Positions 16,843 through 49,628 of a DNA stretch of 64,000 nt are shown in pieces. How positions within the stretch are numbered: the stretch's first letter is position 1; each line of letters begins with the position of its first letter. Source of the stretch: Emiliania huxleyi CCMP1516 (Eukaryota); the NCBI RefSeq assembly GCF_000372725.1, contig NW_005201327.1, positions 190,815 through 254,814 of the forward strand, given 5' to 3'. A program made the position numbers and the translations under genes. The notes below the pieces were generated by a model that searched no databases, was not told the origin of the DNA, and was given only the letters and a program-made list of their open reading frames with translations.

Positions 16843-19800
16843 TCACGGCCGGAAGGTGGGCACCTGGCGGTCCCAGTTCCACGAGGCCTCGACGGCGACG
16901 CGGGGAAGCGCCTCCTGATAGGGGTCGGCGTCGCGCTTGCTCAGCAAATACTGCAGCGCCTCCTCGAGCTCGCGCTGCACCTGGGAGTACAGCGCGGCGC
17001 ACGCGGCCTTGTCGCGTGCGTCGACACCGCCGGTGGCGATGGGCGCGCCGAAGAGAAAGTAGTAGCGGCCCGGCAGCTTGGGCAGCGAGACCGGCGAGAC
17101 GAACCGCTCGCCGGGGCGGCCGACTGGCGCGCGCGCCGCGCCCTCCTTGACGCGGCCGCCGAGGAAGGGCAGCGCAAGCAACTCGTCCGCATCGAGCAGC
17201 ATCTCGAAACCCTCCTCCGCGCCGACGGCGGCGACGGGAACGATGGTGGCGTTGAATCTTGCGGCGACGCGCGCAAAGTCCGCCGACTCCGACGCGTCCG
17301 GCCAGAAGAGCTGGTAGCTCTCGCCCCGTTTCGTCGACTTGAAGGCCTCGCGCACGCCGCCCGGGTAGAGCAAGGTGTGCTCGCCGCGCGAGAGCAGCTT
17401 GAAGAGCGCCTTGCCCGAGACCGGCACCGCGCCGAACGTCTCAAAGTCCACCAGGCCGCCGCCGCCGCCGCCGCCGCCGCCGCCCGTGGCGGTGGCGTTG
17501 GCGCCTGCGGTGGTCCTGCTGCTGGAGAAGGCGACCGGGTGGGCGAGGGCGCGCACAAGGGCGCCGCGCTGCGCGAGGATCTCCTCCACCACGAGAGGGA
17601 GGTCCGAGAAGCCTACGTGCTGAAGACGCCAACCTCAGGGCGGGAGGACGGTCTTGTGCAGCGTCTTCAGAGCACCGCGTGAATACAACGGAGAGGAGTA
17701 CAGTGAATACAGCGGAATGCGGCCGAATACAGCGGAATACGTGTCCTCTCGGGCGCTGGTTGGAATACAAGAACACGTATTCCGCTTCTAGGCCGGGAAG
17801 CCGTACAGCTGGTGGTTGCCGACGAAGAGCACCGGAGGCACGCCCTGGGCGCGCTCCTTGAGCACCGGGGACGCGCCGGACGGCGGCGGCGGCGGCGGCC
17901 GCCGCGGCGGCGGCGCGGCGGCGGCGATGTCGTCCGCCGAGAGCGGGGGCAGGCCGCTGAGGCCGGCGACGCGGCGGCCGCCCGCCTCGGTGGAGAGAAA
18001 GACGGGCGAGACCAGGTTGCGGACGGAGCGGAGGCGCTGCGTGGCGTTGAGGATCTGCTCGGCAGAGGGCGGCGCGAAGTCGGCGACGTAGTCCTTTGGC
18101 TTGCTGCCGAGCGGCGTGCGGCCGGTGAAGCCGACGTCGCGCAAGCTTCGGGCGAGGTCGACCTACGAGGAGGACGGACTCAAGGCTGCGCGCCGCTGGA
18201 GAGGGCAGAACAGGGGAGGCGCCCTCGGGCGAGGTCGACCCTAGCTTCGAGCAGCGGCACGTGCCCCGACTCTGGCAGCGGCGAGGTGCGGCAGTTTGGC
18301 AAGCGGCGCCGCAGCCTCCTCGCTTCGTCGGTGGAGGGGAGGACCCGGTCCTTGGGGGGGGGGGGGGGAAGGGCGCGTCGGAGTCACAGCGAGCCACAGT
18401 GTGAGCAAGCGGAGAGCTCGCGGGCAATCTCGGGCAATCTCGGGCAATCTCGGGCAATCTCGGATAATCTCGGGCAATCTCGGGTCCTCTCGGGTCCTCT
18501 CGGGTCCTCTCGGCTGCTCTCGGCTGCTCTCGGCTGCTCTCGGGTCCTCTCGGGTCCTCTCGGGTCCTCTCGGCTCCTCTCGCGGTCCTCGGACGACGCA
18601 AAGACATGCACCGGAAGCCTGAGCCTCTCCAGCGGCGCCTCCTGCACGTGCGCCGCGGCGTGCAGCAGCAGCGACAAGCGGTGGGCGAGCGCCGGCAGAG
18701 GCAGCGCGTTTGGCAGCGCGCCCATCTCCGGCATCTGCTGGGCGAGCCGGGCGAGCAGAACGGGCAACCGGAGCGGCGGCGGCAGCGCCTACAGATGGGT
18801 TCGGGTACCGCGGGGTAGGGGAGGGTGGGTTCGGGTACCGCGGGGTAGAGGAGGGTGGGTTCGGGTACCGTGGGGTAGGGGAGGGTGGGTTCGGGTACCG
18901 TGGGGTAGGGGAGGGTGTGTCCGGAGCGGCGGCCGCAGCGCCTACTCAGATGCCGACAACAAGAGCTCGCACCCGACGATGCGTTGGCAGCCGCAGCGGT
19001 GCGGCAGCGGCAGCGCCTCGTCTCCTCTCCTCGCGCCGAGCTGAAGAGGGTCTCCAGAGATGGCNNNNNNNNNNNNNNNNNNNNNNNNNNNNNNNNNNNN
19101 NNNNNNNNNNNNNNNNNNNNNNNNNNNNNNNNNNNNNNNNNNNNNNNNNNNNNNNNNNNNNNNNNNNNNNNNNNNNNNNNNNNNNNNNNNNNNNNNNNNN
19201 NNNNNNNNNNNNNNNNNNNNNNNNNNNNNNNNNNNNNNNNNNNNNNNNNNNNNNNNNNNNNNNNNNNNNNNNNNNNNNNNNNNNNNNNNNNNNNNNNNNN
19301 NNNNNNNNNNNNNNNNNNNNNNNNNNNNNNNNNNNNNNNNNNNNNNNNNNNNNNNNNNNNNNNNNNNNNNNNNNNNNNNNNNNNNNNNNNNNNNNNNNNN
19401 NNNNNNNNNNNNNNNNNNNNNNNNNNNNNNNNNNNNNNNNNNNNNNNNNNNNNNNNNNNNNNNNNNNNNNNNNNNNNNNNNNNNNNNNNNNNNNNNNNNN
19501 NNNNNNNNNNNNNNNNNNNNNNNNNNNNNNNNNNNNNNNNNNNNNNNNNNNNNNNNNNNNNNNNNNNNNNNNNNNNNNNNNNNNNNNNNNNNNNNNNNNN
19601 NNNNNNNNNNNNNNNNNNNNNNNNNNNNNNNNNNNNNNNNNNNNNNNNNNNNNNNNNNNNNNNNNNNNNNNNNNNNNNNNNNNNNNNNNNNNNNNNNNNN
19701 NNNNNNNNNNNNNNNNNNNNNNNNNNNNNNNNNNNNNNNNNNNNNNNNNNNNNNNNNNNNNNNNNNNNNNNNNNNNNNNNNNNNNNNNNNNNNNNNNNNN

Positions 19801-21492
19801 NNNNNNNNNNNNNNNNNNNNNNNNNNNNNNNNNNNNNNNNNNNNNNNNNNNNNNNNNNNNNNNNNNNNNNNNNNNNNNNNNNNNNNNNNNNNNNNNNNNN
19901 NNNNNNNNNNNNNNNNNNNGGGGGGGAGGGGGGGGAGGGGGGGAGGGGGGGAGGGGGGGGAGCCTAAAGCAGGAGGACAGCTCCGAATCACCAGACGAGG
20001 CGGGCGCCGGACGGGCGGCCCTCCAGAGACCGCCGCGAAGATGGGAGTGGCGAGGGCAAAGTAGGCCGCGTCGGACAGGTTCGGAGGGAGGGCGGCGACG
20101 GCGTCGAGGAGGCGCGGCAGCTGCGCCTGTTTTTTGTTGTTGCAAACTACTCACACCAACTAGTCGGGCGACGGCGTCGAGGAGGCGGCGCAGCTGTGCC
20201 GGCCAGGAGCGACCGATGGAGGTTGCGGGGTTGACGAGGGCGACTCCGGCGAGCCTACGTGCTGAATACGCCGACATGAGGGCGTGAAGACGGTGGTATG
20301 CGGCGTATGCCGAGCAACGCAGGCATACAACGGAGAGGAATGCAGCGGAGTCCGTGTCCTCTCGAGTGCTGGTTGGGAGACATGAGCACGTATTCCGCTT
20401 CTCGTAGACGGTGGATACAGCGGAATACGGCTGAGTACGTGTCCTCTCGAGTGCTGGTTGGGAGACATGAGCACGTATTCCGCTTCTAGGCTGGCGAGCG
20501 AGGAGGGCGGCTTGCCGTCGGCCCCCTGAGGGAGCGGGCAAGAGGGTGGGTTCGGGTACCGAGGGGTATGGGAGGGTGGGTTCGGGTACCCTAAGGGAGC
20601 GGTCAAGAGGGGTCAACCACACGCGCAGAGTCGCCCACGCTGTCCTCTCAATCAGGCGCCGTGCCCCGAGACGCTTGTCCTACCGCTCCCCCCTCTGTTC
20701 GCCGACGCCCATCGCCGTCTCACGCTCTCACTTCCACCGCCGTCTCATCGCCCTTTCTCACGTCCTCACCTCTACCGCCATCCATCGCCGTCTCACGCTC
20801 TCACCTCCACCGCCATCCATCGCCGTCGCACGTTCTCACCTCTAGCACAGGAGTACGATTGGACAGTCAGTCAGTGGCTAGTCGTTCGCACGTCCTAGCA
20901 CGGACGAAGGCACACGCGCACGCGAGGACGCACACGGTGCCAGTGCAGGCGAGGCGGTGTGTGCGAGCTCTCAGGAGATACGCATCTATTGTAGATGCGC
21001 CTGAGCAACGCTGAGCGCGAGGACGCCGCCGAACGACTCACCGAGCAGGTAGATGGGCCGCCCCTCCTCCGCCTCGACCTCGCGGGTGACGGCCTCGCGT
21101 AGCGCCTCGAAGCTGGACCGGTCGTCCGGCGGTACGGCCAGCCAGCGGACGCAGAAGTCTTCTGCGAGCCCGGGAAGCTGCCGGTGGAGCGAGTAGCCCG
21201 ACAGCTCGATGCCGGGAAGGTACAGGAGGAGAGGCTTGGTCGGGTCGTCCTCGGCGGTGTGCCGCACAAACTGCGGGTCGCCGGTGACCGCAAAGTCCGC
21301 CAGCCGCGGCTCGGAGGCCATCTCCCGCCGCATCTGCGCCGTCAGGATGCTATCGCTGGCGAGCTGCAGTACCGGCGCCACGATACGCTGAATCGGCAAC
21401 GCTGCGATGTTTTGCACGCAGGGCGCTGCTGGGCGAGGGCCGAGCCGGCTAGGGGTGGCGAACGCGTGGAGCGCGGTAGTGAAGGCGAGCAT
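16843..21492 (-). CDS. Phytyl ester synthase / ELT-family protein (alpha/beta hydrolase + DGAT-type acyltransferase), multi-exon, interrupted by N gap
   Basis: Transit-like N-terminus, PLLLYLPGIELSG, IYLLGESFGG, VALVNPATS, SGHVPLLE, VLFVGNHQLYG|FSDLP, LLYPGGVREAF, GRYYFLFGAPI. Confidence 0.85.
17612..17792 (-). mobile_element. Introner family A copy 1 (forms GC-AG intron 17613-17801)
   Basis: CCTAGAAGCGGAATACG...CACGTAGG. TSD CTTCCCGG/CTTCTCGG. Splicing restores NHQLYG-FSDLPL. Confidence 0.85.
20254..20490 (-). mobile_element. Introner family A copy 2 (intron 20255-20499; internal duplication)
   Basis: Same termini. TSD CTCGCCAG/CTCGCCGG. Splicing restores KPPSS-LAGVALVNPATS. Confidence 0.85.
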
Positions 21493-21588
21493 TACACACA
21501 CATATATATACACACACATGTGTATTGTTCTCGGACTTTGCGGCCGTACACATGAGTATTGCGACGTCGCTTGATTTCTTCCGGCCTG

Positions 21589-21671
21589 GTGTGCCGGTGA
21601 TAGTACTAGCACGCGCCAGTTCGCACCTGTGTCGAGCCTGTGTGCTGTGTGAGAGAGTTGTCTTGTTTAAA
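21589..21671 (+). mobile_element. 83-bp 3'-end insert of CRE-like family 1 (variant) with 13-bp TSD
   Basis: TTCTTCCGGCCTG at 21576-21588 and 21672-21684. Body similar to 7396-7452 and 43523-43597. Confidence 0.75.
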
Positions 21672-22485
21672 TTCTTCCGGCCTGATGTCGGTGGCAGGAC
21701 GGTGGCACTCTTACCTCGAGAACCACGTCTCGCTCACGCTGAGAAAAAATCTGAAACGGCGTGCAGCAGAGTCACCGACGAGTCGGTCCGCGTGCCTCCT
21801 CGTGTCGCGCATCGTTCTCACCCATCCATAAACTCACTTTGGCCTCACTGAAGCGATGCCTCAATCCTGAATCCTCAGATTTTCGATTACGTTGCGGCGC
21901 GAACACGATGCTGGCTCTCTCGATCGCCAGCGCCGCCGCTGGAGCGCACCCCCACCGGGCGCCTCTGTTCAGCACCACGCCACTCTCACCGAGCTGCGTG
22001 GCGCTGGCTGCTGCCGCCGACCGGGGTCTGAAGAGCACGTGCTCTCTCTCAATGACATTCTAGCGATTGGTCGAGCGCTGGGCTGCGAGGGCATCCACAG
22101 ATCCCAGCTACGCCTCCCGGATGGCAAGCACTTTTGCGACCTTTGACTTTGACGGCGGTGGCATGTACAGCGTGGCGAAGGCGCGCGCGCACGCAGCCGC
22201 GGTCGAGCCAGAGGTGGAGTCCGAGCTAGCGCGCTGCTGGCAGCGCCGGCGCGCCCAGTGCGGCGATTTTGGAAGGACGATCAGGGGGACAGGTGGGGCT
22301 CTCCTGCTCCTGAGAAGGGACCTACCTACGCAAATTTAGGGGCGAACTTTTTTCTCTTCCTGTCACTTCCCACGGCCTGTATAAGGGCGTAGACGCCCTT
22401 AGCCTGTACCCCCCTAGGTACCCCCCATCGCTCCGTCGTGGTAGCTCCGTCGTGGTCGACAGCTCCATCTTCGGGACTGCAGCAC

Positions 22486-25153
22486 ATGCAGCTCTCCATC
22501 TTTGTCGCCACCTGGGGCCGCACGGCGATGATCCGCTCCAGGGGCATCGCCAGCTTTCTCGACGAGCTATCCGCTCGCGGTTTTGCAGGGGTCGAGGCGA
22601 CCGCAGAGGAGCTCGGAGCCTCTCTGAAGGAGCGGGTCGAGTACTGCCGCCTCCTCCAAGCGAGAGGGCTGAGGTTAATATACGCCGCCTACACGAGCTG
22701 GCTCGGCTACGAGGGCGCGCACCCGGGATTCACCACGCCGCCGGAGCACCTGGCGGCGCTGGATGCGGAGCTGGCCAAGGCGGCAGAGCTCGAGGCGGCG
22801 GCGCCTGGGACCCTCGCTCACATCAACATCCACGGCGGCTGCGACTCGTTTGACGAGGCGCAGGCGGACGAGTACTACAGCGGGGCCCTCCCACGGATCG
22901 ACGCCTTCCTCGCGACACACGCCCACCTGTCGACCGGCGCCCGCAGCGGCGTCTCGCACGAGTCGCACCGAGGCCGGCCCCTCTTCCACCCGACGCCGAC
23001 GCGCCGGCTGCTGGCCAAGCACGGGCGCGACCGGCTGAAGCTGACGCTGGATGTGTCCCACTGGCACGTCTCTAGCGAGCGGATCGTCGGGTTTGCGCCT
23101 ACCACCAACAGGCCCGACCCGGAGGCTCTGCCAGTTGTGAGCGTGAGCAGCGTCTCTTCACACCTCTAGCTGTGAACAGGCCCGACCCGGAGGCTCTGCC
23201 AGCTGTGAGCGTGAGCAGCGTCTCTTCACACCTCTAGCTGTGAACAGGCCCGACCCGGAGGCTCTGCCAGCTGTGAGCGTGAGCAGCGTCTCTTCACACC
23301 TCTAGCCGTGAACAGGCCCGACCCCGAGGCGCTCGGCGCGGCGAACGTGGAGTGGGGCGCGGCCGAGGCCGCGCTGGCGGAGGCGGCGAGGAGGGAGGAG
23401 GAGGTTCCTCCCGGTGTGGCGGCAGAGAGGCGCTGGCTGCACGGGGAGGCGTACCTCGCCGTCGAGCACGTCCACGCACGCATCGGCAGCGGGCAAAGCG
23501 CGCAGACGCCCCCGGGCGAAGACGCGGACTGGAACGCGGTGCGGCGGACCGAGATGTAGCCGCGACGTAGCCACAAGAGCAGGCAGAACGGTCTGGGTCA
23601 CGCAGGACAGCCGAGAAGTGCGTCCAGCCGGACTGTCTGCAGCGCGGTGCGCCCAGGCCGAGCAGTCTCTCTTCCCACGTCAGCGCCGTGAACAGGTGCG
23701 CGCGCACGTCGCGATGTGGAGGACGGTCTGGGGCAACCTCTCCGCCTCGGGGGCGAGAGAGGCGATCGTGACGCCCGAGTACGGGCCTGGCTACTTCACG
23801 GGCCAGAGCTGCGTCACCAAGGAGTGGTCCCCCGAGGCGCTGTGGGCGCAGACCCTCGCCGCTTCGGCGCACCTGCGAGAGGAGTTTGCGGCGTGGGAGG
23901 CTGGCCGCCCACCGACCGGCCAGGGGCCCTCGCCCGCCCTCGCGGACCTCCCCGCCCCTCCCCCTCCCCTCCCCGCACGCGTCTGCACCCTCCCCACCAT
24001 CGACGTGTCGCGCTTCGTGGCTGGCGGCGCCGCCGAGCGGGCGAGCCTGGCCGAGGAGTGGAAGGTGTCCGTGACATGTCCGTGACATGTCCGTGACGTG
24101 TCCCGTAGGCGAGCCTGGCCGAGGAGTGGGACGCCGCCTTCTCGGGCGTCGGCTTCTGCCAGCTCGTCGGGTACGAGTCCCTCCTCCCCGCCTCCGCCAT
24201 CGCCGCGCTGCGCGAGGCAGCGACCGTCTTCTTCGAGACCGAGTCGCGCGAGGTGAAGATGCGCTCGCACATCGACGGGCTCCTCGGCTATTTGGCCATC
24301 GGCGAGGAGAATGTCGCCGCCACCGTCGGCGCTGCCAACCGGGTGGCGGATAAGGTCGAGGGCCTCAACTTCTCGGGCTACGGAAGCGAGCTCAACGGCT
24401 CGCGAGGCTGGCGGTCGCGCGACCCGTGCGAGGTGCCTTGGCTCGAGGAGCCCTTCGCGCGCGCGCTGCCCGAACGGTTACGGCAAGCGGCGGCGGAGTA
24501 CTGGAAGGCGGCGACGGCGCTGATGCACGTCCTGCTCGAGCTCTCCGCGCTCGCGCTCGGGCTCGAGGCGAGCCACTTTGGTCCCTACTATGCTGAGCCC
24601 GGCTGCACGCTTCGCCTCGCGTACTACCCTCCCGGCCCGGGCGAGGAGGGGCAGCTGCGGTATGGCGAGCACACCGACTACGAGGGCTTCACCATCCTGC
24701 AGCGGCCCGTGGAGGGGGGCGGCGAGGGCAACGGCGGGCTCGAGGTGCAGCACCCGTCCGCTAGGCTGCTGGCCAGGACGTGTCCACTGACATGTCCACC
24801 GACATGTCCGGGTCCGACAGGTGCAAGACCCGCGCACGGGCTCCTGGGCGGGGGTCCCCTCGCTGCCCGACACGCTGACCATCAACATCGGCGACCTGAT
24901 GGCGCGCTGGACGAACGACCGCTGGCGAGCGACGAGGCACCGCGTGCCGGCGCCTACCGCGGGCAGCGCCGCCGCCGCGTGCGGCCGGTTGAGCTTGGTG
25001 TACTTCACCGGCCCCAACCCGAGTATGCCGGTGCATTGCCTGCCGTCAGCCAAGTGCGACTGCGAGAATCCGAAGTACCCGTCGATCACGCTCGAGGAGA
25101 ATGTGCAGGCCAAGTTGCTCGCCGCACAGCGCGGCGCCGCCGACGGCGCGTGA
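22486..25153 (+). CDS. Fusion of xylose-isomerase/AP-endonuclease-2-like TIM barrel and 2OG-Fe(II) dioxygenase (DIOX_N + 2OG-FeII_Oxy)
   Basis: GFAGVE, SHESHRGR, LTLDVSHW, HVHARIG, TPEYGP, then in the same exon LPTIDVSRF, followed by GFCQL, LRLAYYP, GEHTDY, INIGDLMARWTND, HRV, RLSLVYF. Four inferred introns. Confidence 0.8.
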
Positions 25154-25423
25154 GGGCTGGATGCGGGTGTGGCGGGTCGCGGGTGCACACTATGTACTAT
25201 AAGTTGTGACGAGACGTATCTCGTTTTACCAGTAGCCACTAGCCAGGCGTCTGGTTATTGTGTACCAGCTTTGCGGTACGGGGCGTAAAGCCGCACGAAT
25301 ACACTGATTTCGAGCCGTATATTCTCACGGAAAAAACAGACGCGTCTGAGAGCGATGATCTTGTTCAATGCCACATTTTTTGCTATGTGCTTTTACTGCT
25401 AACGCTCTCGCCGCTCGGTCTCA

Positions 25424-28464: not shown

Positions 28465-29104
28465 TCATACCCCCAAGCGCTCCGGCGCCCACGCCTCGAC
28501 CCTCTTGGGCAGCAGCTGGTTCGACAGGTCCTCTCCGTGGCCTAGGCAGCCGTGGCCGCCATGACCCCAGGTGAAGACGGCGCCGTCGGCGGTGCAAGCG
28601 ATGCAGTGGAATGCTCCAGCCGACACAGCGACGACGCGCTGGCCAGCAAAGGCCTCGACCTTCTTGGGCTGCCACTGATGCGCCGGGTCGCCGTGGCCCA
28701 GCCGGCCCCAGTCTCCATCGCCCCAGCTCCAGACGGCGCCGTCGGCGGTGAGGGCGATGCTGTGGCTGCCTCCAGCCGACACAGCGACGACGCGCCGCCC
28801 GACCAAGGCCTCGATCTTCTTCGGCAGCGGCTGGTCCTGCCGGTCGCCGTGGCCCAACTTGCCAGAGCCTCCACCACCCCAGCTCCAGACGGCGCCATCG
28901 GCAGTGAGCGCGAGGCTGTGGGTCTCTCCAGCCGACGCAACGATCACGCGCCGCCCAGCCAAGGCCTCGATCTTCTTCGGCAGCGGCTGACTCTGGTAGT
29001 CGCCGTGGCCCAACCGGCCAAAGCCTCCCTGGCCCCAGCTCCAAACGGCGCCATCGGCGGTGAGGGCGAGGCTGTGGCCGCTCGCACCCGACACAGCGAC
29101 GACG
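28465..29104 (-). pseudogene. 5'-truncated RCC1-repeat coding fragment (paralogue of 50662-52347)
   Basis: Repeats HSLALTADGAVWSWG..G.LGHGD. Begins abruptly after a copy of the U-box gene linker (GAGCTGGCGGCGGCGCTCGAGGAGAGC). Confidence 0.65.
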
Positions 29105-29213
29105 CCGTGCTCTCCTCGAGCGCCGCCGCCAGCTCCGCCGCCTCCGCCACCGCCAGTGCTGACTCATCCTCAGTCAGGCCGACGGTGGCGGGCGGCGCAA
29201 GCGTTGCGCTCTG

Positions 29214-30943
29214 TTAGCATGCGTTCGCCTCTTCCCACTCACGAATCTGCCGGCGCAGCGTGTGGTTGGGGGCGAGGAAGCTGTGCACGAGCGCCTCGCC
29301 CGTCATCGGGCTCGTCGACTTGGTCGCGAGCCAGCGCTCCATCGCCGACCGCTCGTACGAATGCCCGTCCGCCGCCATCACCGGGTCACTCATGAGCTCG
29401 GTCGTGATCGGGCAGATGAAGTCGGCCGGCGGCTCCTCCTCCCTCGGAGCCGGCGCCTCTGCGGCCGATGACGGCCCTTGCGCCTCCGCCGCCCGCCTCT
29501 CCTCCTCCAGCCTCGCGCTCTCCTCGAGCGCCGCCGCCAGCTCCGCCTCCTCTGCCGCCATCAGCGCCTCGGCACGAGCGGCGGCATGTCGCATCGCCTC
29601 CGCCTCTGCAGCCGCTCTCTCCGCCTCCCTCGCCGCTGCCTCCGCCTCCGCCTCCGCATGCTCCTCGAGGGCGCGCACGCACTTGGCGAGGCCCTTCGCC
29701 TTGGCAAAACACAGCGCCGTGTCTCCAGCCGCCGTGCGCAGCGTCGCGTCGGCGCCCGCCCGCAGCAGGCGACACACGATGGCGGAGTGGTCGGATATGG
29801 AGGCAAACATCAGCGCGGTGCAGCCGCCGCTGTTCTGCAGGTTGATCTCCGCGCCGTGCCGAATCAGCAAGTCAACCACCCGCTCGTGACCGTTGATGGC
29901 GGCGTACATCAGTGCGGTGCCGCCGCCGCTGCTCTGCATGTTGATCTCCGCGCCGTGCCGAATCAGCAGCTCGACCACCCGCTCGTGACCGTTCTCGGCG
30001 GCGTTCATCAGTGCGGAGCCGCCTTTGCTGTCCTGCTGGTTGATATCCGCGCCGTGCCGGAGCAGCAACTCGACCACCCGCTCGTGACCGTTGCCGGCGG
30101 CGTAAATCAGCGCGGTGCCGCCGTCGCTGCTGTTCTGCAGATTGATCTCCGCGCCGCGCTGCAGCAGCAACTCGACCACCCGCTCGTGGTCGTTTCCGGC
30201 GGCGATGTGCAGCAACGTGAAGCCCGCACTATCTAACGCGTTCGCCTGCCCGCCGCTGTCAAGCCACGCCAGCAGCGCCGCCTCTTCGCCTCGCGCAGCC
30301 CTACCCCTCTGCGCCGCAGCGCGCGCCGCGCGCCGCGCGCGCCCGCCCGCCGCTCACGCTCTGCCTGCTCCGCCGCCCGCCCCGCCGCCGCCTCGGCAGC
30401 CGCTCGCCACTCTCGCGACCTCTCTGCCTCCTCCCTCGCACGCTGCTCCGCCTGCTCCGCCTTTGCCGCAAGCCTGGCTTTCCGATCCTCCGCCCTCCGC
30501 GCCGCCTCAAACGCCAAGTTCTCTTGCTTCTGCCGCTGCAGCTCCGCCTCGCGCTTGCTGATCACTTTGCTTGCCATCTTGGCGGCTGCCTCTCGCCGCT
30601 GCTGCTGCTTGACCTCGGGTCGGGGCCTGAGAGAGCACAGCCATGCCCACAATCCGACGAGAAGCCGCACGAGCAACTGCTGCAAACGCGAGAGCCCGAT
30701 CGGCGGCTGCGAGTCGCCGACTGCCGGAAGCAACCGAGACCCGCCGTCGAGGACGGCCACGCCGCCGCCAACGCCGCCGCCGCCGCCCCCTCCTGCGCCG
30801 CCCTTCTTCTTGCCCTTCTTCTTCTTCCCCACACCGTCTCCGCCGCTGTTCGCCAACTTCGCCGCCGCCGCCGCCGACGACGACGCCTGCTCCTCGACGA
30901 TCAGCTCCGCCTGTTGACACCCACGAGTGTGAAGAGAGGCCAT
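29214..30943 (-). CDS. Coiled-coil + ankyrin repeats + U-box E3 ubiquitin ligase
   Basis: Several TALxxAAxNGHERVVELLL ankyrin repeats and PADFICPITTELMSDPVMAADGHSYERSAMERWL U-box. Joined to upstream ORF via a probable short GC-AG intron near 30300-30350. Confidence 0.8.
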
Positions 30944-31134
30944 TCACGGCAGCGGCATTCGCTCTCCAGCAGCCGGCTGCCTGCAGGCTCTCGGCAAGCT
31001 TGGCCGCCAGCTCTGCGTCCGCTTTGCTCTGAAGCGTGCGGGCGAGGCGGGCATCCCGCTCCTATGAGGAGATGTGGGGGAGATATGTCCGGTGCAATGT
31101 CAGGGTGTCGTACCGCATTTTACTTAATCTCACA

Positions 31135-31192
31135 CTGCTGAATACAGCTGAATACGTGTCCTCTCGAGTGCTAGATACGTATTCAGCTTCTA
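31135..31192 (-). mobile_element. Truncated remnant of introner family A
   Basis: GAATACGTGTCCTCTCGAGTGCT...ACGTATTCAGCTTCTA matches the family A 5' end. Confidence 0.65.
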
Positions 31193-31569
31193 CTTTCTCG
31201 CTCCGATGCCACCGACTCTGGCTTCTCCGATGATACCGCCTCGGCGCCGCTCGAGCCGGGCACGCCCTTTGGCGAGAGAGCTGAGTCGTACCCAAGCGCA
31301 CGCAGATCGGCCCACGTGTCCTCCGGCCGCGCCATCGTCTGCAGCTGCATCATCTCGAGAAAGCCGCGGCGCGTGAGCCTGCCCTGCCCGTTCGTGGTGA
31401 ACTCGCCCACCTGCGAGAGCTCCGCCTCGCCGAACTCCTCGCCGCCGTTGCACGTGCGCGCGAAAGACTGAAGTTCTGCCGTCGACCAGGCGCCGTCCAC
31501 GTCGGCGTCGAAGCGGCAGAAGACCTCGCCCAGCGCCGCTTCGAGCGGAGGAACGAGCCAGTCGTCCAC
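31183..31569 (-). CDS. EF-hand-containing protein fragment (start not evident)
   Basis: VFCRFDADVDGAWSTAEL and GRLTRRGFLEM...TWADLRALGYD. Confidence 0.55.
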   Translation of the reverse strand: MDDWLVPPLEAALGEVFCRFDADVDGAWSTAELQSFARTCNGGEEFGEAELSQVGEFTTNGQGRLTRRGFLEMMQLQTMARPEDTWADLRALGYDSALSPKGVPGSSGAEAVSSEKPESVASERESRS

Positions 31570-39117: not shown

Positions 39118-41476
39118 ATGGCGCCCAAGCGGCAGCGCAGCGCAGCACCAGCTGCAGCGCCTGTCCACACCGGCCGTGTCGTACTCGATGTCGGCGGCAC
39201 TCGCTTCGTTTCATCGCGCTCGACGCTCGAGGGTGCCTCCTCCTACTTTCGCTCACTCCTCGTGCGGTGGAGCCCGGTGCGCCAACACAGACGCCGCAAG
39301 CTGCCTGGCGTGCACTCTGAGACCGCTCTGCCATCCCTCCTTATCACCGTGCGGCACGCGAGGATTGCCGTGCCGCCGCTCCACGTCCGCACGCGTCTCT
39401 CCTGCAGGCGACGCCGGACGATCCGATCTTCCTCGACTGCGACGCCGACGCGTTTGGCGTGCTGCTCTCGCACATGCGCGTGCCGTCATGCGTGCTGCTG
39501 CCGCCCGGCGACGTCGGCCTCGCCACCCGCGTGTTGCTGCTCGCTGAGTACCTCGGCCTCGACGGATTTCTCACGGCGATCAAGGCGAGGGCCTACTCGC
39601 ACATGCACAGCAGCTGCAGCACCGCCACCGACGCCGCAGCGGCCACAGCCTTCGACGAGGAGGCGGGAGGCCTGCAGCAGGCCATCGATAAGCGGCTGCT
39701 GCCGGCTCGCTTCTTCGCGCCGGAGCCGCCGCCGCCGCCGCCACCGCCAGAGGCCACCGAGCCGCAGCAGCTCCTCGCCGCGCCGGGCGCTTTTCTTTTT
39801 TTGACGGCGGGCGGCATGTCGTTGTTAGGCGACCGTTCAGACGCTCATCCCGGCGGCAGGCTTCACCGCAATCTTCGCAGACGACGAGATCGACCTCGAC
39901 GACGATCTCCCGCAGGATCTCCCGACACCTCCCCACACCTCCCCATCTCTCGCCATATCTCGCCAGATCTCCCCAGATCTCCCCAGATCTCCGGCCGCAG
40001 GTGCACTCGGTGCACCGCGTGGTCTCGCTCGCTCTGGTGCAGCTGGCCGACGGCAGCCGCGAGGTGGACGCGCTGATCCAGCCAAACAACAACGAGCTTG
40101 AGCCGCGCGGAGGAGAGCGCACGAGGTCGCAGATGGTGCTGGCCTCTGAGCACGCGCGCGACATCCCGTGGGTGCACTGGGTGCTGCGCCCCCACCCTAC
40201 GGCCACAGGACCGAACCCACGCTGGGTTCGAGACCCTGGAGTGTATGGTACTAGGTGCTCAGCCCCACCCTACGGCCACAGGACCGAACCCACGCTGGGT
40301 TCGAGACCCTGGAGTGTATGGTACCAGGTGCTCAGCCCGGCGCGGCTGCCCTCCCTCCTCTCGATTGCGCCCGGTACCGTCCGTGGCCGCTGGGTCACTC
40401 CCTCCCTACGAGCGGGCCGAGCTGTGAACGGCGTCTCTTCACGGCTGCAGCTGTGAACAGGTGAAGCCGGGTCACTCCCTCCCTTCCAGCGGGCCGAGCT
40501 GTGAACGGCGTCTCTTCACGGCTGCAGGTGTGAACAGGTGAAGCCCGCGTTCGAGCAGGCCGACTTGGGCAGGGCGATCGAGATCGCACACGGCGCGGTG
40601 ACGGTGGGCGGCGTGCGGCGGCGCGTGGACTGGGAGGGGGAGGTTCCCGGCGATTTGGCCGGTACCATACACACCGTCACGAGCGAGTGCGGTGTGAACG
40701 GCGTCTCTTCACGGCTGCAGCTGTGAGCAGGCACCATACACACCGTCACGAGCGAGTGCGGTGTGAACGGCGTCTCTTCACGGCTGCAGCTGTGAGCAGG
40801 CACCATACACACCGTCACGAGCGAGTGCGGTGTGAACGGCGTCTCTTCACGGCTGCTGCTGTGAGCAGGCACCATACACACCGTCACGAGCGAGTGCCGC
40901 GGCGACGTGATCGTCCGGCGGGCCGATGACACCTACAGCTGCTTTTGCAACCCGAGCGCCGCGCCCACCGACGCCGCCGAGGCCGACATCGCCTTTGCCG
41001 AGGTGATGGGCCCGACTTGTCGGGACGGAATCTCGCGCAATCTCGGGGTGATCTCGTGCAATCTCGCCAGGTGATGGACCCGACGTCGGAATCTCGCGCA
41101 ATCTCGGGGTGATCTCGTGCAATCTCGCCAGGTGATGGACCCGACGTCGGAATCTCGCGCAATCTCGGGGTGATCTCGTTCAATCTCGCCAGGTGATGGA
41201 CCCGACTTCGGGACGGAATCTCGCGCAATCTCGGGGTGATCTCGTGCAATCTCGCCAGGTGATGGACCCCACGTCGGGCGGCGACTCGCTGCGGGCGCGC
41301 TTTCTCGTGCCGGTGACGGGCGTCGGGCGTCGGGACGGAATCTCGCGCAATCTCGGGGTGATCTCGTGCAATCTCGTTAGGTGACGGGCTCGGGCGTCGG
41401 GACGGAGAAGGAGCTGACGCTGGCCGACGTGCGCAACATCGCGATGGGCGAGCGGCGCGTCTGCGGCGTCACCTAA
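39118..41476 (+). CDS. BTB/POZ (KCTD-type) domain protein, multi-exon
   Basis: VVLDVGGTRFVSSRSTL...YFRSLL, IFLDCDADAFGVLLSHMR, LLAEYLGLDG. Downstream exons inferred across repeat-filled introns to TAA at 41476. Confidence 0.7.
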
Positions 41477-42044
41477 GGCAGAGGTACGTCGACGTATTTC
41501 TTTTTCTAGGCGAGCGGCGTTTCTACGGCTTCACGGGCGTGGCACGAGCGTGACAGCCACTGCCGCCGCGGGCCGCGCACACGCGCGATGCCATTCACCT
41601 TCCCGCCTCCGCGACTTCGTCGTATGTGGACCGGAGGCTTGCCGGTGCATTTGCAGTGGCATTTGCCGAGTGAGCGCGAGCCGCATTAGTGGCCATGGGC
41701 TCAGCAGCCGCGAGCGAGCAGCGCACGAGGTAGCGCTTTTTTATGTATGTAAAGAGGGACGGCTCGATTGGTCATTCTCATTGGACGGAGCGGGTGGACG
41801 CGACCACAAGGGGGGGGACCTCCGCGGGGCTCCGGCAGCCTCCGGGGCGACGCCGACGCGGCTGCTTTTGGGTTGTAAATAAATAAATAAAATGCGAAAC
41901 GGACACCACTACTGTGAGATTCGAGTGAGATGGTGTAAATCTAAAAAGGAACAGGTCCCCGCCCGTGAAGTAAAAACGGCGGTTTGATTGGGATTTTGCA
42001 CATCCGCAGCTGCATCCAATGGCGCTTGGCGGATGGCTGAGCCC

Positions 42045-42170
42045 TGGCTGTCAGGCTGTCAGGTGCTGTCAGGTGATCTGTCGGGCTGTCGGGCAGCTGT
42101 CAGGCACTGTCAGGTGCCTCTGTCAGACCAGCTGTCGGGTGCTGTCAGTGCTGTCGGGTGCTGTCGGGTG
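42045..42170. repeat. CTGTCAGG/CTGTCGGG short tandem repeat (related tract inverted at ~34090-34145)
   Basis: Seen directly. Confidence 0.7.
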
Positions 42171-42229
42171 CGTGTCTGGGTGTGTGAATCGGACGGCGAG
42201 GGGGGCGGAGGGGCGTGAGTGAGTGAGTG

Positions 42230-42343
<114 letters not shown>

Positions 42344-43517: not shown

Positions 43518-43606
43518 GACACTGGTGTACCTGTGTTAGTGCCAGTGCGCGCCAGTCCCGTGCCCAGTGTCGTGCGAGGGAGTTTTGTTGTAAAATTGTA
43601 AATTCT
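43518..43606 (+). mobile_element. Short 3'-end insert of CRE-like family 1 with ~8-bp TSD
   Basis: CTTTGCAC at 43510-43517 and 43607-43614. Body near-identical to 14764-14837 (rc). Confidence 0.75.
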
Positions 43607-44262
43607 CTTTGCACCGTCCGACTTCGTCGCTGTCAGTCTTTTCTCGACTGTCGTGTGCGAAGAAACAGTCTGGCCACACTTAGTAAAACTTTGGGGTCCC
43701 GAGACCGGGACCCACCCGGGACCGCCGCGCAGCAGCGCAGCGCGCGCAGCGCGCGGTTGGGTTGTTGCACGAGTATATGGGCCACGATGTCTCGCTCGAG
43801 GTTCTCGAGGTGGATATCCTTTGGCCGCGTTGGGTAGCGAGGATTGGTGTATAAACCCGAGCCACGGAGGCGTGTTTTCTGGCGGCCGACCGTCAGTGCA
43901 CGGAGTTGCCACTTCTCCGACTGCCCCGGCTAGTTCCCGAGGTCGTCGGGTGTGACCCCTTCGTCCCCCGAGACCTAGCGCGGGTGGGTTGGAGGGGGCG
44001 CGCCCCGTTCCTCTCAAATATGAGGGGTTTTGACTCCTACCGGCTCCTGACGCTATCCCTGGCAGCTGTAATGACCAGGATCAGTAGTGTTGTGATAGAG
44101 TCTCGCCCATACTAGCGCAGGAGCTGCCACGCTCGCGCCCGGACCGTCCCCTTCTGGGGCCGGTTCCGCAGCCCGCGAGAGCCGACAGCGGGATGGTAGA
44201 GGACTGGGGGATAGTCGAGAATAACGCGCCCGGACAGCCCACCGGACCCATCGGGTGCTGGA

Positions 44263-44770
44263 ATTGATTGATTGCTTGCTTGCTTGATTGATTGATGGGA
44301 AGGCGAAACACAGTCCGACCAACGACTGGGACACCAACGCGGTATGGGTGGACGCTAGACGGGCGATGACGGTCACACAGGAGCGACACACAGAACCACA
44401 AGACAAGACACTCAGCCGAACTGACTGCCACACATCCTGAGCGAACTTCCCTAGTCACCCGCGGCCGGACTCCATCCGGCACGCGTCGCTGGGCGCTCAG
44501 AGCTGCGTCCCCTGCTCGCCACCCCGACGCCCAAGGCGCCCGAGCGAACGACAGGCGGCACGCGAAGACGGGTTGCAATCCCGCCGACCGCCAGGCCGCG
44601 GGATGATGAGTGCGTGGTCTTGTAGTGGGTCTCGGAAGCTCTCCTCTCGGGCTAGGAGCCAGCCCCTCTCCCTTGCCCTCGGAACACTGTGTCCGAGTCG
44701 AGGCGTGTGCTTGCCGGTCGACGGCCGCGCGCGGTTGGCATTGTGACGAGGGTTGCGCGCGGCCGCGGCG
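44263..44770 (-). mobile_element. (TCAA)n-tailed retroelement 3' region (LINE UTR or SINE), ~500 bp
   Basis: Near-identical to 56995-57480 and 45352-45608. Ends in TCAA/GCAA tandem tail. Confidence 0.75.
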
Positions 44771-45274
44771 CGCCCGCCATGGTTCGGCGCGGCGCGCCTA
44801 CCAGCGGCAATTGTCGAGGCACGGGAACGCTTACCCGGGGTCATCCTCTGAGCCTGGTCGTCGGCGCCGCGATGCCACGGCGGCGCATTCGACGTCGTCG
44901 GCGCGCTGCCCCGCGGTGAGCCCCGCCGCACGTGGCGACGGCCGCAGGTTGGCCCGGTGCAGCGCGCCCTGGCCGCAGACTGAAGAACGGCCACGAGGGG
45001 TGTGTGATGTGCGGTGCGGGGTGTGAGGGGGCAGCGTCTTTGTGTGTGCGCGCGCGCGCCGCTGCCGGGAAAGAGCGGGGCCCTCGGGGTACGCCTCGCC
45101 CGGCCCCCTCCGAGGGGGTCGTGATCTGAACTGGAGAGGGGGGGGGGGTCGGCCTTGAGAGCGTACGGGTGCTCTCACCGCGCCAGAGGCTCTGCCTCCC
45201 CTCTCGGGGATTAAACTGAGGGATAGGGGCGGGGATCCTCCCTCTTCCCGCCATCGATGCCGGGGCTCAACCAC

Positions 45275-45608
45275 ACACCGATTCATTATCTTTTGTCCGT
45301 CCCGCCGCCCGCCGCGCGGCCAGACTCCACATCACCTCAATGTAAACGAACATTGATGGGAAGGCGAAACACAGTCCGACCAACGACTGGGACACCAACG
45401 CGGTATGGGTGGACGCTAGACGGGCGATGACGGTCACACAGGAGCGACACACAGAACCACAAGACAAGACACTCAGCCGAACTGACTGCCACACATCCTG
45501 AGCGAACTTCCCTAGTCACCCGCGGCCGGACTCCATCCGGCACGCGTCGCTGGGCGCTCAGAGCTGCGTCCCCTGCTCGCCACCCCGACGCCCAAGGCGC
45601 CCGAGCGA
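45275..45608 (-). mobile_element. (TCAA)-family copy plus shared 3' flank
   Basis: Matches 56917-57255, including ~80 bp beyond the tail position. Confidence 0.7.
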
Positions 45609-45624
45609 ATCGCGCAAGCGTACT

Positions 45625-46032
45625 GTGGGTGGATTGAGAAGTACGGCTGGTGGATCCGCCCAAATCGTACCGTGGGTGGATTGTACGTGGGTGGATTGTA
45701 CTGCCGGTGGATTGAGAGTTCCGCTGGGTGGATTGAGGCGATGTCCGCTGGGTGGATTGAGATTTGTTCGTCCGGTGGATTGTACGTGGGTGGATTGAGA
45801 ACGTACGGCTGGTGGATCCGCCCAAATCGTACCGTGGGTGGATTGTACGTGGGTGGATTGTACTGCCGGTGGATTGAGAGTTCCGCTGGGTGGATCGAGG
45901 CGATGTCCGCTCGGCGGATTGAGAAGTGTTGGGCCAGTGGATTGAGGAGTGTTGGGCCAGTGGATTGAGGAGTGTTGGGCCAGTGGATTGAGGAGTGTTC
46001 GGCCGGTGGATTGAGGAGTGTTGCGCCAGTGA
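45625..46032. repeat. GGTGGATTG-based compound minisatellite (two ~160-bp units and ~24-bp units)
   Basis: Many GGTGGATTG/GTGGATTGAG motifs with higher-order duplication. Confidence 0.8.
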
Positions 46033-46072
46033 AATCCTACCACACCCATCGAGGCCACCAACCCTGCCGGGA

Positions 46073-47194
46073 ATGCTCGTCTCGTCCCTGCTCGCCGAGG
46101 CGCTGCTGGCCCGCCCGGTATGGCCCGCGCCGGCTGGCACCCGCACCGCCCGCGCCGGATGCGCGCCGACCGCGCGCCTCTTCTCCGAGGAGTGGATGGG
46201 TCGGCTCGGCACCGCGACTGCCTCCAAGGCGAAGCGCGCAGAGCGGCTGCCGGCGTCGGCACTGGCGCCCGGCTGCGTGCTGGTGGCGGAGCCGGGCTCG
46301 TTCGACCACTACTTTCTCGAGTCGCTCGTCCTCCTCCTCGAGCACGGCCCCGCCGGCAGCCGCGGCGTGCTGCTCAACCACGAGACTCCGTGGCAGGTCA
46401 GCCACGATGGATAGGAGGCGACCGAGACACGACCCGGGCGCGGTTTGGAAAGGCCGCTCAGCGATGGGCAGAGCGGCCACGCGCTGGAGCGACACACGCG
46501 ACACACAGACGCACAGACAAGACCACCTCTTCCAGCAGCGCTGCCAAGAAAGCGTCGCGGACGCAGCGCTCGATTTGCAGAGGTCTCTCTGTCTTCGGCC
46601 CGTCCTGAAACCGTGCTCCTCCTGTGGCAGGTGGACGAGATGGGGCCCGCGGCAGCCCTCGGCCCGTTCGCCGCCAACCCGCTCTTCCTGGGCGGCGACG
46701 CGGGCGCGGACACGATGGTGGTGGTGGTGGTGGTGCAATAAAGGCGCCTCTGCCGACCCAGGAACCTCTGAGGCCTAGGCGCAGACACGATGGTGATGGT
46801 GCATGGCGAGGCGCACCTTCCGGGCGCCCGCGAGGTCGGGCGAGGTGTCCATGTCGGCGGCGTGGCGGCGGCGGTGCGGGCATGGTGGGGGCGGGCCCAC
46901 CCCCTCTCAGGTTGAGTGGTCTTGTGATCTGCTCTCTGCCTGATTCAACCGGCCAGGTGCGCGCGGTGGAGGAGGGCGCGCTGCCCACGTCGCGGTTCAA
47001 GTTCTTCTACAAGAGCGTCGAGTTTCTGCCCGGGGCCCTCGACGCGCAGGTGGCGGACGACCTCTTCTCCCTGGCTGCTCTGTCGCCCGCCTGGTTGTAC
47101 GGCCAGGCAGGGCAGCGGTCGATGTGGGCAGAGGTGTGGCCGGACACAGACACAGACACACACACACAGACACACACACACACACACACACACA

Positions 47195-47262
<68 letters not shown>

Positions 47263-48004
47263 GCTCACCCACGCGCACTGGGCCTTGCACTTTGGATGCC
47301 GTGGGGCGCTCCTGCCTGTCTAGACGTGGAGTCGCGAGGGTCGCCCGGGCCCTAGCCCCACCACCTCGTGTGTGTGGAGAAGCTTCCCTTCCTTCCCTTC
47401 CCTTCCCTTCCCTTAGGTGAGGCAGGCAATCTCCGAGAGCTCGGGGCCGGGCAGCGGCGGCGGCGGAAGCGGGGGGGAGTGGGCAGGGGGCGGGGGCATG
47501 CCCGCCGAACAGGCGCGCTGCTGCTGTTACGTCTTCGGTCCCCCGCGGGAAGCCCCGCGCATAGGACAACAACGTCTGTCCCACACACGCACAGGCGCGC
47601 ACATACGTCATGCTCGGGCACCCCCCACAGTGTAGTGGTGTGAGCACACAAGTACTAGCAGAGTGCGAGCAGGCGCGCGCGCGGGCAAAGCACGACGACG
47701 AGCTCAAGGCGTACGTGGCGACGCTGCAGGCGGAGGCGGCGGCGGAGGAGGCGGCAGCGGCCGCCAAGGCGGCGGCGGAGGCGGCGTTTGCGGCGGAGGC
47801 GGCGCCGCCGAGTGCCGCGGCGGCGGAGGTGGCGGCGGCGGAGGTGGTGCCGGCGGAGGAGGCGACGGCGGCGGCGACGGAGGCGGCGGCAGCGGCGGGG
47901 GAGGGGGAGGCGGGGGAGGGGGAGGCTGCGGCGGCGGCGGCGACGGAGTGGCTTGCGGCGCGTGGAATCGTCGCGCCCCCCGCCAAGCAAACACGCGAGG
48001 GCGG

Positions 48005-48072
<68 letters not shown>

Positions 48073-48327
48073 CACAGGGTTCGAGCGCGTCGCAGCTGGC
48101 GGAGGTGCTTGAGTACCGGCGCTACATGGGGAACGACCAGTGGCGGGTGCGGTGGCGCGGCGACGGGGGCGAGAGCCGTGGGCGGAGGGACGCGTGCCGG
48201 CGGCGTCCTCCTTCTTGAGACTCGCATCGTTCTCCCCGCAGGCGAGAGCTGGGAGCGGTGGGCGGTCCTCGACGGCGAGGCGCTGCGGGAGCGGGCGGCG
48301 GCGCTGAGGGAAGAGCGGCGCGGGTAG
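46073..48327 (+). CDS. Plastid-targeted DUF179/AlgH (UPF0301) family protein with C-terminal chromo-like segment
   Basis: GCVLVAEP...YFLESLVLLLEHG...GVLLNH, LFLGGD, RFKFFYK, EVLEYRRYMGNDQWRVRW...ESWE. About six introns. Confidence 0.75.
47263..47416 (+). mobile_element. (CCTTA)n-tail SINE-like copy 3, forming the 3' part of intron 47134-47416
   Basis: Homologous to 14907-15050 and 15698-15833. The tail CCCTTCCCTTAG ends at the acceptor. Confidence 0.7.
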
Positions 48328-48566
48328 AGTCAGGCTCAGCGTCAAAAAGAGTGGACCGACGAGCGTGCTCGCAAGAGCCGTGCTCAGTTTTATACGTTCG
48401 GCTGTTGACTGTTGGTGTTGCAAACACACGCGCGGCTAGCCACGCTGGCTCCCCCAACGGTCGCCCTCAACCGCTCTCCTCCCGCTGAAGAGACCCTGCG
48501 CCCACGCCCCACCCCACGTGCCACGAGCCGTCGACGCGCGTCGGCGGCGATGAAAACGCGCAGATC

Positions 48567-49628
48567 TCAGACTCTCGTGTCCTCCTCGTCGCGCCGCCTC
48601 GGCTTGCCGCCAAAGCAGCCGCACGACGCCATCAGGTTGAAGGCCCACGCAACCTTGCACAGCACAAAAGACAGGATGAGGACTGACGGAGGGAGGCCGT
48701 GCTGCAGGCTCCACGCGGCGAGGAACGCGGTCAGGCCGATCAGCGACCAGTAGGTGACTGCGATCCACCGCCGCGCCGGCCCGCTGCAGAGGGTGTTCCC
48801 GCAGTACTTTCGCGGCCCAAAGAAGAAGACCATGGCCTGGATGCCTACGTGTTCAATACGCCAGCCTTAGGGGGGGAAGACGGTACTGTGCAGCGTTCTC
48901 AGAGCACCGTACAGTGAATACGGCGGACTACAGCGGACTACAGCGGAGTACGTGTCCTCTCGAGCGCTGCTTGGGATACAAGAATACGTATTCCGCTTCT
49001 AGGACAGGATGCCCGCCACTGCACCGATGGCGAAGACGACCAGGAAGGCCTCCACGCCGACCAGCGAGAGAAAGACGACGTCGAGGATCGCGCAGAGAGC
49101 GGAGACGCACACGCAGGTCATCATCCCAAACCACGGGTCGACGCCGCAGCAGCGGTCGCGCCTCGGCTCCGCCTCTGCCTCGGCCTTCCGCCCCGGCTGC
49201 CGCTGCTGCGGCTGCGGCGGCGGCTGAAGCGCTCGCGCACTCCCACTCTCCCGCGCTGCGGTGCCGCGACCGCGAGCGGCGCCCAGCTGCTGACTGCTGC
49301 GACCGAGGGCGGCGCTCCTTGCCCGGTCGAGCGCCGCCCGCGAGCCACTCGAGCTCCGGGCGCGCTCGAGCGCGGCGGCGGACCGCGCAGACGGCGCCGA
49401 CGCCATCTCCGTTGTGCGCTGCGACTGCGGTGCTGCCCACGCTGGCAGCTGCGGCTCTGGCGCCGGCTGCGGCTCGCGCGCCGGTGGCGCCGGCTGCGGC
49501 TCTGGCGCCGGCTGCGCCGGCTGCAGCTGCGCCGACGGCGAGCTGAATGGGTTCGCTGCTTGGCGGAGCGACGACCACTCGCTAGCGGCTGCTTCACCGG
49601 TGGCCGCGTTGCTGGTCTTGCGAGGCAT
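48567..49628 (-). CDS. SFT2/Got1-like multi-pass vesicle-transport membrane protein
   Basis: MPRKTSN..., four hydrophobic segments, FFFGPRKY...RRWIAVTYW. Contains a family A introner. Confidence 0.6.
48844..49003 (-). mobile_element. Introner family A copy 3 (intron 48845-49012)
   Basis: Same termini. TSD CATCCTGT/CATCCAGG. Splicing restores AVAG-IQAMVFF. Confidence 0.8.

Follow-up and report, generated by a model that had tools for sequence, protein, structure and literature searches.

Within a 64,000-nucleotide stretch of Emiliania huxleyi CCMP1516 DNA (contig NW_005201327.1, positions 190,815 to 254,814; the whole stretch is referred to here as the window), a reading made from the sequence alone had noticed three copies of a short repeat, here called family A, and had proposed that they are introners. 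From the analysis that followed, we are highly confident that family A is a dispersed, non-coding introner of the DNA-transposon type, likely non-autonomous and once moved by a hAT-type transposase, and that each of its insertions likely made a new intron. Family A provides a countable mechanism for part of the GC donors of this organism, in which the second base of the donor is whatever the insertion duplicated, and GA-AG introns could have originated in the same way.

Family A in the window

The three copies were confirmed, and the coordinates first assigned to them (Table 1) were all correct. As had been claimed, they lie in two unrelated genes, on the minus strand and each sense to its host; they are 69-87% identical to one another in local alignments, and both termini are common to all three. 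Copy 2 owes its length to an internal duplication of ~85 bp. The flanking 8-mers of copies 1, 2 and 3 match at 7/8, 7/8 and 6/8 positions, respectively, with a G preceding each upstream 8-mer, and four order-1 resamples of the window yielded no match at E≤1 to a profile hidden Markov model (HMM) of the family. A fourth, degraded relative had been overlooked. Its 3' half has been replaced, and its duplication matches at 6/8 positions (31053-31060 versus 31195-31202) and begins with A, so that the predicted donor is GA. This donor leaves the frame of the host open, while an inner GT donor closes it; the Pfam EF-hand_7 match in the host gene scores below the cut-off.

Table 1. Positions in the window of family A copies, their introns, host genes and putative short introns
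Feature	Position	Strand	Basis
Copy 1, full-length element, 181 bp	17612-17792	-	HMM 1-181, E 4e-59
Predicted branch A of copy 1	17635	-	branch column in copy alignment
Exon-side 8-bp duplication, copy 1	17604-17611	-	7/8 with 17793-17800
Intron 1, 189 nt, GC-AG	17613-17801	-	gap-free homology of spliced peptide; RNA joint inferred
Copy 2, 237 bp	20254-20490	-	local alignment and family HMM
Exon-side 8-bp duplication, copy 2	20246-20253	-	7/8 with 20491-20498
Intron 2, 245 nt, GC-AG	20255-20499	-	joint 20247 to 20493 in X11 and X9
Copy 3, 160 bp, 21-bp internal deletion	48844-49003	-	local alignment and family HMM
Exon-side 8-bp duplication, copy 3	48836-48843	-	6/8 with 49004-49011
Intron 3, 168 nt, GC-AG	48845-49012	-	joint 48838 to 49007 in X11 and X9
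Fourth, degraded relative, 3' half replaced	31061-31194	-	HMM 3-75, E 1.4e-10
Predicted GA-AG intron of fourth relative, EF-hand gene	31062-31203	-	sequence-based prediction
Host gene 1, alpha/beta-hydrolase and acyltransferase, phytyl ester synthase type	16843-21492	-	5' end approximate
Host gene 2, predicted to encode a membrane protein of no assigned family	48566-49628	-	frame open once spliced; X11 and X9 contigs over both exons
Second-class putative introns, window	24041-24108, 41448-41509, 63613-63682	+	
Second-class putative introns, window	18163-18239, 20127-20199	-	
Second-class putative introns, metagenome	L015, L028, L029, L030, L046, L062, L069, L075, L092		

Probable splicing of the copies

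Contigs were compared from an RNA run (X11), from a run of a different study that is RNA by guess (X9) and from two DNA runs (X2 and X4). The RNA junctions expected at copies 2 and 3 were found in both X11 and X9, where 245 and 168 nucleotides, respectively, are skipped. The joint at copy 2 is absent from X2 and X4, and that at copy 3 from X2; the metatranscriptome X14 had no coverage of host gene 2. Within the slide that the repeated letters allow, only one register per joint combines a G[TCA] donor with an AG acceptor (20255-20499 and 48845-49012), and in both cases the donor is GC. These sole fitting registers agree with the proposal that the host G and the first base of the duplication supply the donor and that the AG of the element supplies the acceptor. 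Copies 2 and 3, which are missing from the RNA, are likely to be spliced as introns.

At copy 1 the expected junction is approached only indirectly. Record 24 of X9 (depth 12.7), following 147 other letters, restarts at 17797, and its depth is shared by a variant at 17596 that lies 12 letters from a piece end, a pattern that would fit a skip of 189 bases. The predicted intron consists of the host G, the intron-side duplication at 17793-17800 and the element minus its last G. Its removal gives VLFVGNHQLYGFSDLPLVVEE, which is identical, without gaps, to P0001 from NHQLYG onward and which reads YGFSDLPL as do P0001, P0008 and P0009, with no insertion or deletion; the intron-side duplicate would put Pro for Ser. 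Splicing of copy 2 gives back LAGVALVNPATS. The spliced peptides of copies 1 and 2 thus match homologues or restore the frame, as the idea of a scarless intron holds. The duplicate retained in the RNA at copies 2 and 3 is the exon-side one, and it is likewise the exon-side duplicate that matches the homologues at copy 1. Left unspliced, copies 1 and 3 run into a stop at once and copy 2 shifts the frame.

A dispersed family with an 8-bp duplication

Further copies were gathered by an exact 17-mer scan of metagenome contigs, which gave 103 loci. A family copy (HMM E<1e-4) is present at 71 of these and absent from 32, of which 31 are chance 17-mer matches and one, L068, ends at its contig edge. 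The same scan returned no locus from viral contigs, and in the 16 loci that it returned from prokaryote genomes the similarity is confined to the pattern itself, so that these too are chance matches. Together with the four in the window, there are 70 distinct sites with unrelated flanks, 52 of them with both ends called; the 3' end was placed at the nearest YAGG, and the duplication was not used in placing it. Identity between the k bases before and the k bases after the element is 0.76 at k=8 and 0.22-0.37 at k=3-7 and 9-12. At least six of the eight bases match at 37 of the 52 two-ended sites (15 are perfect), compared with a mean of 2.1 and a maximum of 8 such sites when the pairing is shuffled. 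A 9-bp duplication (G plus the eight) would fit the same letters, but the termini then fall out of register, and it was rejected as less parsimonious; single sites that fit 9 bp are the first copy at L029 and L076.

The elements are 106-246 bp long (mode 181), and the introns are mostly ~190 nt. The terminal inverted repeats described as imperfect in the window are so across the family: flush with the duplication, they agree mostly at 9-13 of 17 positions (range 4-15 in 34 non-compound copies). Pairwise identity among 22 near-full-length copies averages 76% (range 61-91%), whereas records that share a site mostly agree there at 95-100%; judged by these sequence distances, the burst appears to be old rather than active and the sites look fixed. 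At all seven loci with more than one copy the copies lie on one strand, as they do in the window. A sense-strand Pfam match above the cut-off stands beside the element at 10 of the 31 sites tested, and the host domains of the family include XPG_I, SNF2, carboxylesterase, Sir2, MetRS, NIR_SIR and carboxyl transferase. In the DNA runs, the summed contig depth of elements relative to flanking exons is ~200-fold, which is a hint only and gives no copy number. Extrapolated to an assembly of 168 Mb, the four copies in 63 kb would amount to ~10,000, against ~73,000 donors counted in E. huxleyi (PMC4028052); this is a loose upper guide, the window having been chosen for having them.

Several variant forms were met in the census. 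In a compound subfamily (both copies at L014, L023, the second copy at L029, L052, L058, L067 and L079), the element's initial 13 bases occur a second time, 42-60 bases outside their usual place and separated from it by 10-mer repeats, and it is the outer edge that bears the 8-bp duplication (8/8 for both L067 and L079). The termini of L093:137-317 and L033:2063-2223 are nearly symmetric, and these copies are probably the ancestral form. In L032/L037, L061/L071, L079, L088 and the relative at 31061-31194 of the window, the 3' halves have been replaced or lengthened by simple repeats, with a distant YAG-G and a decayed duplication still kept; these are introners becoming unrecognisable introns.

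Donors, target site and orientation

The base immediately before the duplication (position -9) is G at 35 of the 37 clean sites, and its mirror (+9) is C at 14 of 37 (Fisher p 2.4e-7). Because the mirror C is so much rarer, the G does not reflect a symmetric target preference, and its enrichment may be explained by selection for a donor. Both of the sites that lack it also fit splicing. At the first, L048, a GT is present two bases outward, and a Sir2 profile continues across the site (1-14 and 17-96 on its two sides). The second, L093, appears to have been inserted the reverse way and has a G at the mirror position, which makes it a probable reverse-orientation intron; its host has no Pfam or PDB support. 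The predicted donors at the clean sites are GC at 30, GA at 4 and GT at 1 (34 of 37 GC or GA), and those at all 66 sites with a 5' flank are GC at 42, GA at 12, GT at 2, GG at 1 and other at 9. Family A introns are thus predicted to be GC-AG and GA-AG, with GT-AG rare.

The sequence-only reading had described 8-bp target-site duplications beginning with C. The 8-bp register holds, although none of the three duplications in question is perfect and the first base across the family is C at 31 of 37 sites, A at 4 and T at 2. Within the target, T at position 2 (16/37, p 1.4e-4 against a background of 17%) and A at position 7 (14/37, p 6e-4, background 15%) are favoured, and A at position 8 is never found (0/37, p 0.004), the counts there being G 16, C 13, T 8 and A 0. 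A symmetric preference would make position 1 C 16, G 13, A 8 and T 0, and dropping GG from this leaves C about twice as frequent as A, with almost no T, which is near what is observed. The dominance of GC would then follow mainly from the target preference of the transposase.

On the sense strand, 32 of 37 copies have a branch-like motif, CT[ACG]A, at a distance of 18-40 nt from the 3' end, as against 1 of 37 on the antisense strand; its A is invariant and is flanked by the two columns that vary most. An acceptor could come from either terminus, and the orientation bias is likely due to the presence of this motif on one strand only.

How the introns may have arisen

Taken together, these features suggest the following sequence of events. 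A transposase would have made an 8-bp staggered cut, favouring nTnnnnAn and avoiding A at position 8 and hence, by symmetry, T at position 1. The inserted element ends in YAG-G and has a branch-like CTNA some 22-25 nt upstream, on one strand only. The G before the target and the first duplicated base would serve as donor, so that the upstream duplicate leaves with the intron, and the last G of the element would stand in for the host G that is lost, leaving the protein unchanged; for two copies this step draws on the RNA joints, and for the rest on prediction. Selection would mostly have purged the insertions that had no such G or that faced the way in which the branch motif is missing, and a rare T at target position 1, a target of 68% G+C and an unusable GG would together leave GC and GA donors. 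The copies of this old burst would now be decaying as ordinary introns.

For a view of a site before insertion, 52 in-silico empty sites were used as queries for a spanning nucleotide match. A carboxylesterase paralogue (L027:1238-1344) spans the L042 insertion point with 85 of 107 positions identical, gap-free, with a single 8-mer and no intron. Homologues that lack the element and yet have an intron had been named as the finding that would speak against an insertional origin, and the one empty homologue found, this paralogue, is intron-less. With the exact joints, it makes it likely that insertion created the intron. The same two observations bear on the proposal that family A consists of ordinary MITEs (miniature inverted-repeat transposable elements) that landed in older introns or proto-splice sites. 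G is common at -10 as well (23/37), as it is at ordinary exon ends, and some copies have received later insertions of 10-mer repeats, as this proposal would have it. Both RNA-verified joints, however, are exactly G plus duplicate plus element minus one base, which leaves no room for an older intron, and the paralogue has none at its site; the proposal is largely refuted, and we regard it as very improbable.

Spread through RNA, by reverse splicing or target-primed reverse transcription and perhaps with the machinery of the second intron class described below, was considered as well. It would accommodate the strong sense bias and the failure to find a transposase, as well as the interior of the element, an array of ~10-nt GTATTC units resembling the 10-mer fillers of other introns, and the duplicated 5' end with 10-mer filler at eight sites. 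A duplication fixed at 8 bp with a palindromic T2/A7 preference is not what this route predicts, and neither are inverted termini that are flush with it (mostly 9-13 of 17, up to 15), the small number of 5'-truncated copies or the probable reverse-orientation intron at L093. Nor is there a sign of conserved RNA structure: no covariation was found in an alignment of 28 copies (covariation term -0.27), although copy 1 alone folds with z -2.8, and family A had no match in Rfam. On balance, the chance that family A spread in this way is small.

Several points weigh against the DNA-transposon introner that we favour. An empty homologue was found for only 1 of the 52 queries, and it is a paralogue; there was no empty allele or polymorphic insertion among the loci or in the two DNA runs. 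No transposase was found in 142 open reading frames (ORFs) of the window (≥156 residues) or in the scans of viral contigs and prokaryote genomes, nor a kilobase-long bounded copy among the loci examined, and the termini begin with CC (CCTA), unlike the CAG/TAG of hAT ends. The acceptor count is partly by construction, the nearest YAGG having defined the 3' end, and the conservation of the 5' end is ascertained, copies having been found by an exact 17-mer. At 15 of the 52 two-ended sites the duplication matches at fewer than six of eight positions, and several of these fit a 9-10 base register, a small indel or secondary insertions. Other columns are as invariant as that of the branch A, which is therefore suggestive only, and 7 of 37 sites came out as antisense under a crude codon model, albeit one (1742 codons) too weak to tell the strand of single sites. 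X9 is only guessed to be RNA, though it does skip four other introns of host gene 1, and in RNA contigs splicing looks the same as an empty allele of the sequenced strains.

This last point is the basis of a different explanation, in which the RNA joints come from element-free strains and the insertions break the genes in this assembly, contigs being unable to tell splicing from absence. Wild-population DNA (X2, X4, L064 and L102) carries the element at the same window sites, the flanking frames are conserved while the intron-side duplicate drifts, and the enrichment of G at -9 would have no cause. This explanation is scarcely credible.

A second class of putative short introns and the abundance of GC donors

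Two of the at least seven RNA-supported introns of host gene 1 are family A, and four of the five others open by nearly repeating the beginning of the next exon, over ~8, 15, 20 and 34 bases. In 179 kb (the window and 57 loci), scanned on both strands for simple direct repeats of at least 10 bases, 60-80 apart, 26 of 203 cases had G[TCA]..YAG at the left border, and 2 had it at the right. When other dinucleotides were put for AG, the counts were 1-15, and order-3 resamples gave 0-2 of 18-32. The putative introns of this kind are 62-77 nt long; each opens with 9-36 bases copied from the beginning of the next exon, after which comes filler made up of 10-11-mer repeats or of a shared motif. The duplications of those found in the scan are 8-36 bases, several fillers are common to unrelated genes, and the donors are GC in 18, GT in 5 and GA in 3. 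By a strict test there are seven in the window; in this size class, RNA supports only 18163-18239 and 20127-20199. This second class is distinct from family A and probably commoner, and its variable duplication and 3'-anchored filler suggest target-primed synthesis.

Other arrangements of short introns were also noted. An RNA-supported GA-AG intron of 237 nt at 18351-18587 (-) is filled with 10-mer repeats; its start matches the next exon at 5/8 positions, and by the HMM it does not resemble family A. Short intron-like units are stacked in tandem, two to five at one exon position, in the window (23112-23315, 40731-40868 and 41071-41380, all +) and in L007:393-614, L061:3109-3312 (-) and L093:370-513 (-), as if insertion or duplication had recurred at the same site. 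A filler of ~37-45 bases that is 92-100% alike in unrelated genes is found at 23135-23179, 23257-23315 and 40829-40868 (+) and near 30911 (-) in the window, as well as in L028:1532-1581, L030:573-623, L069:741-776 and L092:212-263, and constitutes a separate short introner family.

Among ~73,000 donors counted in E. huxleyi, GC makes up an unusual ~56-65% of junctions and GA ~4%, which the accessible text of that study attributes to high genomic G+C, adding that Joint Genome Institute (JGI) models mostly mis-set such donors (PMC4028052). Family A would matter to those gene models. It is a route to abundant GC donors, as had been suggested, but the second, unrelated class looks to be the commoner one. 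We tentatively propose, as a possibility that we hold well short of firmly, that the GC/GA majority is the footprint of mass intron gain with the donor copied from the exon, rather than of drift of old GT sites under high G+C. Family A, with its fixed 8-bp duplication and a transposase averse to T at target position 1, and the commoner ~70-nt class, with duplications of 9-36 nt and shared 3'-anchored fillers, would supply these donors, and most introns would be young insertions.

Host genes and other features of the window

Host gene 1 carries copies 1 and 2 and is interrupted by an N gap at 19065-19919; among named full-length matches, the one of highest identity (69%) comes from Prymnesium parvum. 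Host gene 2 carries copy 3. The window as a whole is ~65% G+C, with N gaps. A deaminase ORF at 49807-50340 agrees with EMIHUDRAFT_219331 of E. huxleyi CCMP1516 in 118 of 120 aligned residues, leaving aside a 20-residue gap in that model, which makes the organism E. huxleyi or a close relative. Two ORFs with RCC1 repeats, at 28468-29163 (-) and 50665-52359 (-), are ~80% alike and have no obvious introns.

Further repeat families in the window, 75-99% alike, are found at 15697-15947/47150-47408 and 14907-15047, at 9528-10112/57497-58084, at 44291-44770/56994-57479 and at 53339-53650/59901-60288. One of them ends in a long CA run, and no transposase domain was found for them in the scanned window ORFs. 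A direct duplication of 1.26 kb (386-1636/2673-3931, 98.9%) surrounds a 100-N gap, with a VWA domain encoded by both parts, and is possibly an assembly artefact or two alleles.

Comparison with known transposons and introners

P elements share with hAT transposons the T2/A7 symmetry of the target, and this, with the CC start of the termini mentioned above, leaves some room for a DNA-transposon introner moved by another superfamily with 8-bp duplications (P, Merlin or similar), an option that falls within the confidence we place in a DNA-transposon origin. It is nonetheless rather unlikely: the 8-bp duplication, the short, imperfect 17-bp termini, the subterminal arrays and the nTnnnnAn preference, which is that of Hermes (PMC10368747), all match hAT elements as described in the accessible parts of the Hermes and Mar papers (PMC10368747 and PMC3517528, respectively), and like the hAT MITEs treated there family A is non-coding. 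The arrays of family A are made up of GTATTC-like units (≤1 mismatch), 4-9 on one strand and 1-3 on the other, ~10 nt apart. It differs from hAT MITEs in that no partner transposase was found in the window ORFs or the loci examined and in that its copies are predicted to survive mainly as introns. On these sequence features, family A seems to work like a hAT MITE, and we do not assign it to the hAT superfamily.

The parallel drawn at the outset with DNA-transposon introners is sound, since the mechanism is that of known introners, which carry one splice site and co-opt the other, leaving the mRNA unchanged (PMC9860276, as far as its accessible text goes). According to the same text, family 1 of Symbiodinium microadriaticum carries its 3' site, co-opts its 5' site at a 4-bp duplication and has inverted termini. 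Family A is like it in supplying the 3' splice site itself, in using a co-opted 5' site at the duplication and in having inverted termini. Unlike that family, however, it has a duplication of 8 bp, its donor straddles the edge of the duplication, with the host G outside and the second base inside, and the last G of the element restores the exon.

The survey of Gozashti 2022 (PMC9860276), in the portions accessible, lists five introner families in E. huxleyi CCMP1516, with 653 copies that are mostly in genes, average lengths of 37 or 70, entries of '?' or 'N' for target-site duplication and terminal inverted repeat, GC donors at 0-50% and no GA. At ~190 nt and with clear duplications and inverted repeats, family A matches none of these five rows, a separation that is by tabulated description rather than by sequence. 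The 37- and 70-nt families may instead correspond to the second, short intron class, which their rows fit better. The method given there requires similarity to start within ten intronic bases, and family A could have been missed by an annotation-based survey because it starts at base 10 and because JGI models mis-set GC donors. A search of the literature, with most subscription papers outside its reach, gave no description of family A, which is thus probably undescribed, though its mechanism is of a known kind.

Huff, Zilberman and Roy reportedly described DNA-transposon introners in Aureococcus anophagefferens in 2016. A family in Aureococcus sp. has an 8-bp target-site duplication (PMC9860276, accessible text), and family 4 of A. 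anophagefferens is tabulated with both target-site duplications and inverted repeats and an average length of 200 (supplement to PMC9860276). Compared by these descriptions rather than by sequence, family A resembles family 4 in its size of ~200 nt, its duplications and its inverted termini. The two differ in their donors, which in the annotated models of family 4 are 96% GT and 3% GC and in family A are GC at 30, GA at 4 and GT at 1 of 35 sites, and in their distribution: 54% of the copies of family 4 are in genes, whereas nearly every well-kept copy of family A is a predicted intron.

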